Shown here piece by piece: positions 1-61,959 of a DNA stretch of 64,000 nt. This stretch comes from an uncultured Acidobacteriaceae bacterium (lineage in GTDB: Bacteria > Acidobacteriota > Terriglobia > Bryobacterales > Bryobacteraceae): the NCBI GenBank assembly GCA_963787615.1, contig CAWBDJ010000001.1, positions 543,517 through 607,516 on the forward strand. The letters run 5' to 3'. A program made the position numbers and the translations under genes. How positions within the stretch are numbered: position 1 is the first letter of the stretch; each line of letters begins with the position of its first letter. The notes beneath the pieces were generated by a model. That model ran no database searches, was not told where the DNA came from, and saw only the letters and a list, made by a program, of their open reading frames with translations.

Positions 1-264
1 AGACCTTAATTTCAGATTAGCTCACACCCTGCGCCTTACTCCCTGCGGCTGATCGTTCGCGTCGCGAAAGCTACTCGCGCTGAGCTCTTTGCCGCAACAG
101 TTCTATTGATCGCTTCTCATCGATCGGATAGGTGAAGCGCGGCTGGTGGCTTTCGCTCTTCACCTTCTTTTTCGGATCCCCGGCCTGCTGCCCAAAACAG
201 CCGACCGCGAGAATAGCTTCGTGTGCGCCTCGTGTGTCACGCTTAAAGAAGAAAGAGTCCGACC

Positions 265-12936: not shown

Positions 12937-13049
12937 AAATTCCTTTCCCGAGACATCGCTGCCCGAGCCAACCTACTCCCTCCCGCAGTGTAACTGATAT
13001 TAGTACCGTCTTGATTTTTCGAGGCCCAAATGTCGCCCGCGGCTAAGTA

Positions 13050-13994
13050 TCAGGCCGCCGGCGAAATAGGTTCGACGGGGAGACCTAGCTTCAGCCAGCT
13101 TTCGAATCCGCCCTCGAGTGGATGAACTCTGCGCACTCCGGCTCGCCTCAGTTGCAGCGCCGCACGGGCGCTGGTCGCCTCGTTTGGTCAAGTGCAGTAG
13201 AGGATTACTTCGCGATCACGCGGAATCTCTCGAAAATGCGCGCGGAGTTCCGCCGGACGCAGTACCTGCGCACCCATTATCTTCTGGCCTGTTCTCTCCA
13301 CCTCTGACGGGGCGCGCAGATCGACGATAACGGGCGGCGGATCGCTGCCCATCGTTGCGTACGCTTCCTTTGCGCTCATTCGGTCAATGCGCAATTGCCG
13401 GCGGAACCGCACTCGCTGAAAATAACGCCAGCTAATGAACGCGCCGATCAGAAGAGCTAAGACGAACCCGGCGCGGCGCCCAAACAGGCCAAGCAAAATG
13501 ACCACCCTGTCAATCTGGCGATGAAATAGAACTCCGGCAACCAGATAAGCTGTCGACCAAAGCGCCGATCCCGCCGCATCCGCCAGAAAGAAACGCCACC
13601 TCGGCAGTTTGATTGCTCCAGCCAGCGGGTTCGCGATCAGACTCGTGCCTGGAACGAATTTCGTAAAGAGCAACGTCCACGCTCCACGCCTCATATAGTC
13701 AACTTCCGTTTTGCGGACGCAGGTATCGGGTTCGAGCGAAAATTTACACAGCAGTTTGAGAACGGAACGGCCTCGCCAGCGGCCCAACTCGTACCAGAAA
13801 AAGTCCCCCAGCAGAGCGGCAGCGACGCTAATGACGACAGCAAGCCCAAACGAGTAATGTCCATCGCCCACCGCAGCGCCCATCACGAGCAGAACCGGAT
13901 CTGCCGGAATGGGAACACCGGCCTGCACTGCGAACACATAACAGAACAAGAACAGATAGCCATGGAGCAGAATCAGCGAGCGAAAGGACGGCAC
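13050..13994 (-). CDS. DedA-family membrane protein fused to a rhodanese domain; in-frame TGA (13188..13190) at the catalytic-Cys position (candidate selenocysteine)
   Basis: ORF 13188..13994 has a DedA/SNARE-associated core (VPIPADPVLLVMGA, TKFVPG) followed by a rhodanese N-terminal part ending ...DREVILYCT-TGA. The same frame continues PNEATSARAALQLRRAGVRRVHPLEGGFESWLKLGLPVEP... to TGA at 13050. See the first finding. Confidence 0.6.
13155..13173 (-). promoter_or_regulatory. SECIS-like hairpin downstream of the in-frame UGA
   Basis: Minus-strand CAGCGCC-CGUGC-GGCGCUG forms a perfect 7-bp GC-rich stem with a 5-nt loop containing GU. The stem starts 14 nt after the UGA and the loop 21 nt after it. 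Confidence 0.4.
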
Positions 13995-19796: not shown

Positions 19797-20444
19797 TCAG
19801 CGGGACAGCTTCCTTCGCATCATCCAGGCCGCTATCGCAGCCAAGGTGAGAACGAGCGTGGCGATGAACGTATAGCGTTGAACTAGCCGCATCGTCGCCT
19901 GCCAGTTTTCCCCGACGAAGTATCCAATAGAAAGAAAGGTCGCGACCCAAACGGCTGCTCCCGCATAGGCGAACAGCGCAAATGTTTTGTATTCGAGATC
20001 CGATGTGCCTGCTGCCAATGCCGTAAAATGACGCACGCCCGGTATGAAGTACCCGATCGCAAGAAGCCATTCTCCCGCGCGCTGAAACCAGCCGTGTATC
20101 CGATCTAAGCGCTCGTGCGTCAGGTGAAGCCAGCGTCCGTAGCGGTTCACCACCTCGATTCCGAGTGTCCGTCCAATCAGGTAACTGATCGATATCCCGC
20201 ATGCGCTGCCTGCAAATCCAGCCGCAAACGTAAGCACCGGATGCAATCGTCCTTTCGAAATCAGATATCCCGAGAAGACCAGCAGGGTCTCGTCCGGTAT
20301 CGGCAGGCCGACAATGCCCAGAACCAGCAGAGTGAATAAGCCGGCGTAGCCGTAATGCGACAGCCATGCGAGCAGCGCGTCCATGCTTCGGGTAGTCAGA
20401 GGATAACAGGGTGTTACCTGCTTTAACGCTCTACGGCAACTCAC
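19797..20444 (-). CDS. DedA family membrane protein
   Basis: YGYAGLFTLLVLGIVGLPIPDETLLVFSGYL and FIPGVRHF motifs. The true start may be the internal MDALLAWL. Confidence 0.75.
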   Translation of the reverse strand: MSCRRALKQVTPCYPLTTRSMDALLAWLSHYGYAGLFTLLVLGIVGLPIPDETLLVFSGYLISKGRLHPVLTFAAGFAGSACGISISYLIGRTLGIEVVNRYGRWLHLTHERLDRIHGWFQRAGEWLLAIGYFIPGVRHFTALAAGTSDLEYKTFALFAYAGAAVWVATFLSIGYFVGENWQATMRLVQRYTFIATLVLTLAAIAAWMMRRKLSR

Positions 20445-38936: not shown

Positions 38937-39025
38937 GCTGGAGTGGCGGAACTGGCAGACGCACGGGACTCAAAATCCCGCGGAGTTCACTCTCCATGTG
39001 GGTTCGACCCCCACCTCCAGCACCA
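38937..39025 (+). tRNA. tRNA-Leu (anticodon CAA), class II with long variable arm, CCA encoded
   Basis: Acceptor GCTGGAG/CTCCAGC and anticodon stem CGGGA/TCCCG with loop CTCAAAA. Variable arm GGAGT..TCTCC, T arm GTGGG-TTCGACC-CCCAC, 3' ACCA. Confidence 0.9.
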
Positions 39026-61131: not shown

Positions 61132-61440
61132 CTAATCGAGCGTTCCCTGTTCGATCACCACGTTTTCGCGAACGATCAGCCGGTGCGGCGCCAGATCACA
61201 CAGCTTAGGAAGCACCCGTGTCACATGCTCTTCGTAATCCACAAAGATGATGATCACCGGCAGATCGCCGCCCGCTTCCACCAGGCTCGACGTATGCACC
61301 CGGTTCCTGCCGTTGAATCCCGCCACAGCATGAAACGCACTGGCGCCCGCGACGTTCTCACGTCTCAGCACCTGAAGAATCTGTTTCCATTTGTCCGATT
61401 CATTCAGGTACATCGTCACCTGCACCGCAGTCATGCCCAA
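61132..61440 (-). CDS. DUF190 domain protein (PII-like, crcB-associated)
   Basis: 102 aa, ...MYLNESDKW...ENVAGASAFHAVAGFNGRNRVHTS...LPVIIIFVD.... Located immediately downstream of crcB, as usual for this family. Confidence 0.75.
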   Translation of the reverse strand: MGMTAVQVTMYLNESDKWKQILQVLRRENVAGASAFHAVAGFNGRNRVHTSSLVEAGGDLPVIIIFVDYEEHVTRVLPKLCDLAPHRLIVRENVVIEQGTLD

Positions 61441-61446
61441 ACCCTC

Positions 61447-61821
61447 CTAGATGCTGCGGGCCAGCACCGCGCCAAGTATCACCGCAATGAAGCAGACCAC
61501 ATTGGTTGCAAAAACATTCAACGCGGCGACTGACCACTGACCCTGTTCGAACAGTGCGAACGTTTCAAACGCATAGCTCGAATACGTCGAATAGCTTCCA
61601 CAGAATCCTACTGCGATAAGAAGCCGCCACCGCGGGTCCGCCAGGACGCGTTCGGTGGTCCAGATCAGGAAGAACCCCAGAATGAAACTGGCGGTGATGT
61701 TGATGATCAACGTGCCGAAAGGAAAGCTCGACGGGATGAGCTTGGAGACATATTGCGCTACGAAATAGCGCAGATTTGCGCCCGCTACTGCGCCCAAGGA
61801 AATCAGCAGAACTTTTTGCAA
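61447..61821 (-). CDS. crcB: fluoride ion channel CrcB/FluC
   Basis: 124 aa with 4 TM segments. GAVAGANLRY..., FPFGTLIINITASFILGF, GFCGSYSTYSSYAFE. TTG start with GGAG 8 nt upstream. Confidence 0.9.
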   Translation of the reverse strand: MQKVLLISLGAVAGANLRYFVAQYVSKLIPSSFPFGTLIINITASFILGFFLIWTTERVLADPRWRLLIAVGFCGSYSTYSSYAFETFALFEQGQWSVAALNVFATNVVCFIAVILGAVLARSI

Positions 61822-61840
61822 GGAAGACTCCAGCCGTTAA

Positions 61841-61894
61841 GGTGGTAGGAGTCATCAGCCTTTGCAGGCGGTTTTGGCGAACTCCATCGCCGTC
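61841..61894 (-). promoter_or_regulatory. fluoride riboswitch (crcB RNA motif)
   Basis: The minus strand reads GACGGCGAUGGAGUUCGCCAAAACCGCCUGCAAAGGCUGAUGACUCCUACCACC. Compare the Thermotoga petrophila aptamer GGGCGAUGAGGCCCGCCCAAACUGCCCUGAAAAGGGCUGAUGGCCUCUACUG. The conserved GGCGAUG, AAAC.GCC and GGCUGAUG..CCUAC blocks are present, with compensatory helices GGAGU/ACUCC and GCCU/AGGC. Confidence 0.85.
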
Positions 61895-61959
61895 TCTCTC
61901 CATGCTAACTCGTTTTAGGTCCGAATTCCGCCGCGTGTTACGTTAGTGGCTGAAATTTC

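Follow-up and report, generated by a model that had tools for sequence, protein, structure and literature searches.

We analysed a 64-kb stretch of DNA (the window, 64,000 nucleotides) from an uncultured Acidobacteriaceae bacterium and identified in it a gene for a DedA–rhodanese fusion protein that contains an in-frame TGA codon. The open reading frame (ORF) at 13994..13188 on the minus strand comprises 268 codons, begins with GTG and ends ...PRDREVILYCT before a TGA at 13190..13188. Past this TGA the same frame stays open for 45 further codons, PNEATSARAALQLRRAGVRRVHPLEGGFESWLKLGLPVEPISPAA, and then reaches a second TGA at 13052..13050. An earlier reading of the letters without database searches (the sequence-only reading) had placed the ORF, both TGA codons and the extension at these positions, where all are present, and had proposed that the first TGA encodes selenocysteine (Sec) under the direction of a downstream hairpin, the selenocysteine insertion sequence (SECIS). 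That proposal is supported overall by the comparisons described here, with one correction as to where the catalytic residue lies. It is almost certain that the in-frame TGA is a genuine Sec codon, served by a conserved insertion hairpin of its own, and we put the probability that the locus is a genuine Sec-decoded selenoprotein gene at about 0.92. The gene has the following features.

13050..13994, minus strand: whole selenoprotein coding sequence, 314 residues plus the terminal stop, with GTG at 13994..13992, Sec codon 269 and stop TGA at 13052..13050.
13530..13910, minus strand: DedA (VTT) membrane domain, residues 29-155; PF09335, 55.1 bits against a threshold of 33.9.
13089..13373, minus strand: rhodanese domain, residues 208-302, running across the UGA; PF00581, 43.3 bits against a gathering threshold of 22.2.
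13194..13196, minus strand: TGC codon of the invariant Cys267, likely the canonical catalytic cysteine or the partner cysteine of a C-x-U motif (U, Sec).
13188..13190, minus strand: UGA, the selenocysteine 269 codon; TGA in 71 of 79 orthologous loci, TGT or TGC in 8 of 79.
13155..13173, minus strand: bacterial SECIS hairpin, with 5' arm CAGCGCC at 13173..13167, apical loop CGUGC at 13166..13162 and 3' arm GGCGCUG at 13161..13155.
13050..13052, minus strand: true terminator TGA; the C-termini of orthologues end or diverge hereabouts.

The domain architecture can be read directly from the read-through product. Both Pfam domains are found in it over threshold, which bears out the fusion that had been named from the letters, and the rhodanese match extends over profile positions 2-101 of 102 with the TGA inside it. 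The DedA domain bears the signature G126-x3-(M/L)-x-R132-x-R134-F135...D139..G142...W146. Among the relatives D32, G126, F135, G142 and W146 are invariant, and R132, R134 and D139 vary little or not at all. Judged by these positions, the conserved re-entrant-helix residues (acidic in the first helix, arginine in the second) are intact. The NCBIfam models UptA and DedA (PRK10847) give weak matches, far under their cut-offs. A second, stand-alone DedA/VTT paralogue lies about 6 kb away in the window at 19797-20444 on the minus strand (215 residues, PF09335 75.5 bits). It is without a rhodanese domain and shares approximately 25–30% identity with the DedA domains of the fusion orthologues.

We compared the gene with 80 loci taken from species-representative genomes, nearly all of them metagenome-assembled genomes (MAGs) labelled Bryobacteraceae, Bryobacterales, Terriglobia or 'Acidobacteriaceae'. 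Column counts are based on the window and the 78 loci whose motif could be found, 79 sequences in all, with protein identities of 42–81%. TGA orthologues are also carried by the complete MAG chromosomes OZ255834.1, OZ255821.1, OZ244565.1 and OZ255713.1. The column of residue 269 is TGA in 71 of these orthologous sequences from Acidobacteriota species genomes and TGT or TGC in the other eight. The downstream frame (PNEATSARVALQLKRAG..RPLxGGFExW) is conserved and free of gaps in all 79, and its codons evolve as protein, with amino acids kept and third positions free outside the hairpin. The sequence-only reading would have been contradicted by orthologues that stop at this column with nothing conserved beyond it; the opposite is found. 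Both the Sec/Cys column and the kept read-through frame are direct observations.

Protein databases give a matching picture. A search with the read-through product returned dozens of clusters at 60–100% identity that are annotated at exactly 268 residues, together with more distant relatives (53–66% identity) that are full length at 312–341 residues and have both domains. These full-length relatives, of which there are many, carry cysteine at the TGA column, in the context ...ILYC[T/S]-C-PNEATSAR..., so that the question of whether orthologues have Cys or TGA at this position is answered with both. Orthologues begin MPSFRSL... and run across the TGA column to approximately the same C-terminus as the 314-residue product. 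Over 43 residues, the window peptide following the UGA shares 79% identity with the Cys-form protein P0028 (its residues 270-312). The 45-codon extension, which had been aligned by hand as the missing remainder of a rhodanese fold, is strongly conserved and completes the Pfam domain.

Neighbour-joining places each Cys form on an isolated tip surrounded by Sec forms. Because of this nesting, the tree, which is a simple one, suggests that Sec is ancestral in the clade and has repeatedly been replaced by Cys. The TGA form is also present in L044 and L056, whose bins are labelled Solirubrobacteraceae and delta proteobacterium, respectively; these two loci could reflect either mis-binning or horizontal transfer. 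Otherwise, among the best 80 loci, the gene is limited to Acidobacteriota. Frameshift errors occur in the long-read MAG assemblies, and short 'proteins' derived from them need cautious reading. In L025 a one-base offset lies within the DedA–rhodanese gene (around 10806), and this sequence has a long branch in the tree.

The putative SECIS is a perfect 7-bp hairpin, CAGCGCC-CGUGC-GGCGCUG, at 13173..13155. It starts 14 nucleotides after the UGA, its loop begins 21 nucleotides after it, and its folding energy is -12.1 kcal/mol; the sequence, position and spacing are as the sequence-only reading had described them. Bacterial SECIS (bSECIS) elements have been characterized by an apical loop of 3–9 nucleotides, an upper stem of 4–16 bp, a distance of 16–37 nucleotides from the UGA and a minimum free energy of at most -7.5 kcal/mol, with a G within the first two loop positions that is usually followed by G or U (PMC13188914). 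Of the window's 1814 TGA triplets, 4.9% are followed by a hairpin within these minimal limits and only 0.8% by one of equal stability (-12 kcal/mol). On the window alone the hairpin is only moderately beyond chance, and the case therefore rests on comparison across genomes.

That comparison places the hairpin far beyond chance. All 71 TGA loci have a hairpin that lies within all four bSECIS limits, with a 5-nucleotide loop, a stem of 6–7 bp, a spacing of 21 nucleotides and energies from -8.2 to -13.3 kcal/mol. The loops are CGUGU (33 loci), CGUGC (18), CGGGU (17), CGGGC (2) and GGUCA (1), so that 70 of them read CG[U/G]G[U/C]. The odd loop belongs to L059 (10787-10840, plus strand), which is a TGA form with stem CAGCGCC/GGCGCUG and with Gly replacing Arg at +8; GGUCA is similar to the loop of E. 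coli fdhF, GGUC. At the same register the eight Cys loci have weakened hairpin remnants of -2 to -8.9 kcal/mol. SECIS-like remnants following Sec-to-Cys conversion are known in other families (PMC1794560).

In the gap-free alignment of the 71 TGA loci, stem columns 22-27 and 33-38 hardly vary, and pairing is kept in 94.9% of cells as compared with 20–55% in slid controls. Pair 24-36 follows a compensatory path, with CG in 62 sequences, UG in five and UA in three. The closing pair 21-39 is more diverse (CG 32, GC 7, AU 3, UA 2, plus mismatches). Since most stem pairs are invariant, the synonymous sites provide a sharper test. Among Sec loci Ala+7 is GCC in 71 of 71, Val+9 is GTG in 50 of 50, and Ala+10 is GCG in 68 and GCA in three. 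Ser+6 is exclusively AGC or AGU, and the three sequences with GCA at Ala+10 are those with the compensating AGU. Other alanine codons in the same gene have an entropy of 1.5–1.8 bits, and the eight Cys loci are free at the stem codons (GCA/GCC/GCG; GCC/GCT/GCG/GCA). Because the synonymous sites of the stem, including four-fold degenerate ones, are frozen in Sec loci and variable in Cys loci, the constraint at the RNA level, which is directly observed as selection on the hairpin, is confined to loci where the codon is UGA.

The proposal that this hairpin is a SECIS is thereby supported: it is kept at the same spacing in TGA orthologues, with synonymous constraint and compensation that are absent from the Cys orthologues. 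The locus is a clean case in which a SECIS can be told from a chance GC hairpin by the synonymous sites of Sec and Cys orthologues.

The rhodanese domain contains an LYC-T/S-U motif in the 71 Sec loci, in which L265, Y266 and C267 are invariant; Cys267 is present in all 71 Sec loci and in all eight Cys loci. The active-site loop reads Cys267-Thr-Sec269-Pro-Asn-Glu-Ala-Thr and, counted from Cys267, is two residues longer than the canonical C-x5 loop. The UGA had been said to fall exactly on the catalytic Cys65 of E. coli GlpE. This stands in an ungapped alignment read from the C-terminal side, which puts Sec269 on the catalytic position with a 6-residue loop (GlpE Cys65; also 6mxv domain 1). 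However, it does not stand in four of five alignments of the family profile with solved rhodaneses, which place the catalytic cysteine on Cys267 instead (6mxv domain 2, 3tp9, BpPRF Cys314 and 2hhg). In those alignments Sec269-Pro270 is a two-residue insertion that makes an 8-residue loop with Sec at +2.

An AlphaFold model is available for P0029, a Cys form with 65% identity (mean pLDDT 82.5), which is all-helical to approximately residue 203 and alpha/beta in its rhodanese part. In the model the central strand ends at 266 and the next helix runs from 272, which would leave Cys267 at the classical position. The only PDB matches of this model are rhodanese domains, among them those of the membrane-anchored YgaP (5hbo, 2mrm) and of persulfide dioxygenase–rhodanese and CoA-disulfide reductase–rhodanese fusions. 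Taken together, the profile alignments and the model make Cys267 likely the better candidate than Sec269 for the canonical catalytic position. A safe statement from the aligned sequences is that the predicted active-site loop holds an invariant Cys267-x-Sec269 pair.

From these data we infer SelB dependence, topology, chemistry and a physiological role as follows. Translation would start at GTG 13994, and the ribosome would pass the UGA at 13190..13188 without terminating. The hairpin 14 nucleotides downstream, with its GC-rich stem of 6–7 bp and 5-nucleotide loop C-G-U/G-G-U/C, would act as a bacterial SECIS and recruit SelB·GTP·Sec-tRNASec. Sec would then be placed at position 269, and 45 codons would follow up to the real stop, TGA 13052..13050. 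Insertion of Sec by SelB under the direction of the hairpin is, in our estimation, highly probable. The product would consist of an N-terminal DedA inner-membrane domain (VTT, COG0586-like), a long helix, an Arg-rich stretch WRYFQRVRFRRQLR and a C-terminal rhodanese domain. Because of the positive-inside rule as applied to the Arg-rich linker, this stretch and the rhodanese domain are probably cytoplasmic.

At the cytoplasmic face of the DedA domain, Cys267 and Sec269 may form a pair that cycles via a selenenylsulfide. Such a pair could take and pass on sulfane sulfur or selenium, or could reduce a bound chalcogen or oxyanion, and thiol-disulfide partners would reset it. This specific C-x-U selenenylsulfide chemistry strikes us as rather unlikely in the exact form given. 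A role in selenium or sulfur trafficking, as first suggested by the sequence-only reading, is speculation.

Several results weigh against the interpretation set out above. With regard to decoding, selA, selB, selD and the gene for tRNA-Sec were not found in the 64-kb window, nor in most of the flanks. No Rfam model matches the hairpin, either at gathering thresholds over the whole window or in E-value mode over 13000-13300. As a single sequence the 66-nucleotide fold about the site has a z score of -0.23, which is uninformative in a GC-rich context. Given the invariance of most stem pairs, support for the hairpin comes mainly from synonymous-site conservation and includes few independent covariations. 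With regard to the chemistry, the alignments disagree on whether Cys267 or Sec269 takes the canonical catalytic position, and no synteny is kept between the window and the orthologous loci. Genes of thiol-redox type adjoin the fusion gene in a minority of loci, and neither of the two kinds described below adjoins it in the window.

The search for Sec machinery extended to the fetched loci. No tRNA-Sec was found in the window and 82 fetched loci. When E. coli SelA, SelB and SelD were compared by tblastn with the window and 80 loci, the sole true match was the N-terminus of SelB at the edge of L018; a match in L062 was rejected, as it is TypA/BipA. The L018 fragment (1-237, minus strand) and a TGA orthologue are 9.8 kb apart on one 1.9-Mb Acidobacteriota contig, and the fragment is 58% identical to residues 1-79 of E. 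coli SelB. Its closest database relatives, mostly short fragments, are named SelB or selenocysteine-specific elongation factor and come from Bryobacterales. In a second selB at L083:10001-11858 (plus strand), frameshifts separate a GTPase fragment of 121 residues from a piece with the WHD_3rd_SelB domain. Acidobacteria have been recorded as Sec users with three selenoprotein families (PMC1794560). These observations lend indirect support to the presence of Sec machinery in the lineage. A screen of the window for a second selenoprotein gene, based on an in-frame TGA with a strong hairpin, returned only matches that look non-coding. The only tRNA gene in the window is a tRNA-Leu (CAA) at 38937-39025 on the plus strand.

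It is necessary to consider whether the UGA could be recoded to something other than Sec. A suppressor, or a tRNASec-like tRNACys, might place Cys, or some other standard residue, at position 269, perhaps aided by the hairpin. Such tRNAs have been described (selC*, a tRNASec-like tRNACys, and allo-tRNAs that are possible nonsense suppressors), and some of the allo-tRNAs are acidobacterial (PMC5389517). This explanation would also fit with Cys being the alternative residue at column 269 and with the lack of a tRNA-Sec in the window and the fetched loci. However, a plain TGC or TGT would suffice for a Cys product, and a TGA that lasts over 71 lineages together with a costly constraint on the RNA is hard to explain in this way. 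There are in addition named SelB genes in Bryobacterales, one of them near a TGA orthologue. UGA is also a normal stop elsewhere in the window, where it ends 14 of 31 long non-overlapping ORFs (the commonest ordinary stop) as well as this gene itself. There is no general reassignment of UGA, and reassignment across the genome is rejected on this ground. Recoding of this one codon to a standard amino acid accordingly seems to us very improbable.

We consider it less probable still that the TGA is a real stop, in which case a 268-residue DedA protein with a partial rhodanese stub would be functional and the 45 codons would be kept for another reason or translated separately. Gene callers and NCBI do annotate the 268-residue form (e.g. 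MBV8866391.1, 'VTT domain-containing protein'). Sec insertion is usually inefficient, and some truncated product is probably made. However, the rhodanese fold needs the downstream part to be complete, evolution past the TGA is in the same frame, gap-free and of protein type in all 79 loci, and the Cys-form relatives are single chains. A separate downstream ORF would have neither a start codon context nor a promoter signal. The remaining explanation is an error of sequencing or assembly, or else a pseudogene in one genome caused by a recent nonsense mutation. It could draw on the frame errors in related long-read metagenome assemblies, such as the split selB of L083 and the one-base offset of L025. 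Yet 70 further genomes, assembled independently and from different species, have the TGA as well, and an intact, selected hairpin follows each TGA. Since the TGA is shared and the frame kept across orthologues, sequencing error and a private nonsense mutation are excluded, as is a split gene, which we rejected on the gap-free downstream frame in 79 loci. We regard error or recent mutation as already effectively refuted and as the least probable explanation of all.

Selenoproteins of the rhodanese type are already established from computational prediction and come in several forms; the one known as 'form 3', marked by a CxU motif, corresponds to NF041203, rhodanese_LYCAU (PMC13188914, PMC9312934). 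NF041203 is the best NCBIfam match to the product described here (79.9 bits, E = 1.2e-22, residues 202-308, profile positions 19-124 of 126). The two share a rhodanese Cys-x-Sec at the end of the central strand (LYC-A-U in NF041203, LYC-T-U here), the occurrence of Sec and Cys forms, and a SECIS directly downstream. However, 79.9 bits is less than the equivalog cut-off of 115 bits, and the model describes a free-standing protein of approximately 126 residues, whereas the domain described here forms the C-terminal part of a DedA membrane protein of 314 residues. The gene product would work like a CxU rhodanese selenoprotein without being a formal member of NF041203.

Fusions of DedA (COG0586) and rhodanese are known in the Cys form, for example PA1209 of P. 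aeruginosa, and their role has been called unclear (PMC10127716, PMC12893004). Like the gene product described here, they have PF09335 at the N-terminus and PF00581 at the C-terminus, and JGI annotates Cys-form relatives as DedA–rhodanese architecture too. However, fusions of the PA1209 type have been treated as ordinary Cys proteins with no Sec form reported (PMC10127716, PMC12893004). NCBI gives truncated Sec forms and Cys forms alike the name 'VTT domain-containing protein'. E. coli YgaP, whose rhodanese is among the structural matches above, also has a rhodanese domain that is tethered to the inner membrane. YgaP differs in having an N-terminal rhodanese with a single catalytic Cys, two C-terminal transmembrane helices, no DedA domain and no Sec.

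The hairpin itself is comparable to the SECIS of the E. coli fdhF type and to the bSECISearch consensus, in that it lies within the coding sequence right after the UGA and has a small loop with G followed by U or G, a spacing of 21 nucleotides and adequate stability. It differs from the fdhF type in its unrelated sequence, its short stem of 6–7 bp and the lack of an evident bulged U or lower stem, and it is a candidate by sequence and fold. In the literature that we searched, no paper joins selenoprotein, rhodanese and DedA. The text and family table of a 2026 selenoproteome review do not mention DedA, VTT or SNARE. A Sec-rhodanese fused to a DedA membrane domain therefore appears to be undescribed.

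The genes that surround the fusion in the window encode an outer-membrane beta-barrel protein, a glycine-zipper protein, a glucoamylase, BrkB, an M24 peptidase and the plain DedA paralogue. Elsewhere, a gene for a DsbA-like protein with a thioredoxin fold and a CxxC motif (CPDC) lies directly 3' of the fusion gene in 14 loci, and a gene for a cNMP-binding, thioredoxin-reductase-like flavoprotein occurs shortly downstream in 10; examples of such redox-type neighbours are L051:1194-1979 (plus strand) and L031:8129-9808 (minus strand). These proteins are possible thiol-redox partners, which we take as a weak hint. Frequent opposite-strand 'neighbour' clusters were rejected, as they are artefacts of antisense ORFs within the fusion gene itself. 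At the far end of the window a fluoride riboswitch (RF01734, 63.4 bits, 61839-61900, minus strand) lies directly 5' of a 124-residue CrcB/FluC-like ORF (61447-61821, minus strand), which is followed by a 102-residue ORF (61132-61440, minus strand). This is a classical fluoride-resistance arrangement.

The finding involves no new principle; it concerns a widespread selenoprotein of soil bacteria that is systematically mis-annotated. The gene is annotated as a 268-residue stub in at least 70 species-level Acidobacteriota genomes and in dozens of protein clusters. A dedicated model would restore the complete rhodanese domain, and selenoproteome counts would gain a selenoprotein that is widespread in soil. 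The Acidobacteriota are a dominant group of bacteria in soil, and a common membrane selenoprotein in this phylum implies a selenium requirement that can be tested. Selection for Sec at the C-x-U site would indicate that the rhodanese domain carries out demanding chalcogen or redox chemistry and is not a passive module.

We tentatively suggest, as a possibility that we hold to be somewhat on the unlikely side, that these genes constitute a new selenoprotein family. The Sec-containing DedA–rhodanese would then be the ancestral and dominant form in Bryobacterales/Terriglobia and the first selenoprotein based on DedA, with a C-x-U selenenylsulfide centre located where the transporter opens to the cytoplasm. 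If this is true, the DedA family would be physically tied to selenium or sulfur chemistry. An old genetic link between DedA and selenite is said to go back to Ledgham et al. in 2005 and was given in the sequence-only reading as resistance or uptake in Cupriavidus (Ralstonia) metallidurans. The C-x-U centre may handle selenite, polysulfide or another chalcogen moved by the DedA domain, which would provide a mechanism for that link. Both the DedA–rhodanese fusions and the connection of DedA with selenite would thereby gain a concrete hypothesis that can be tested.

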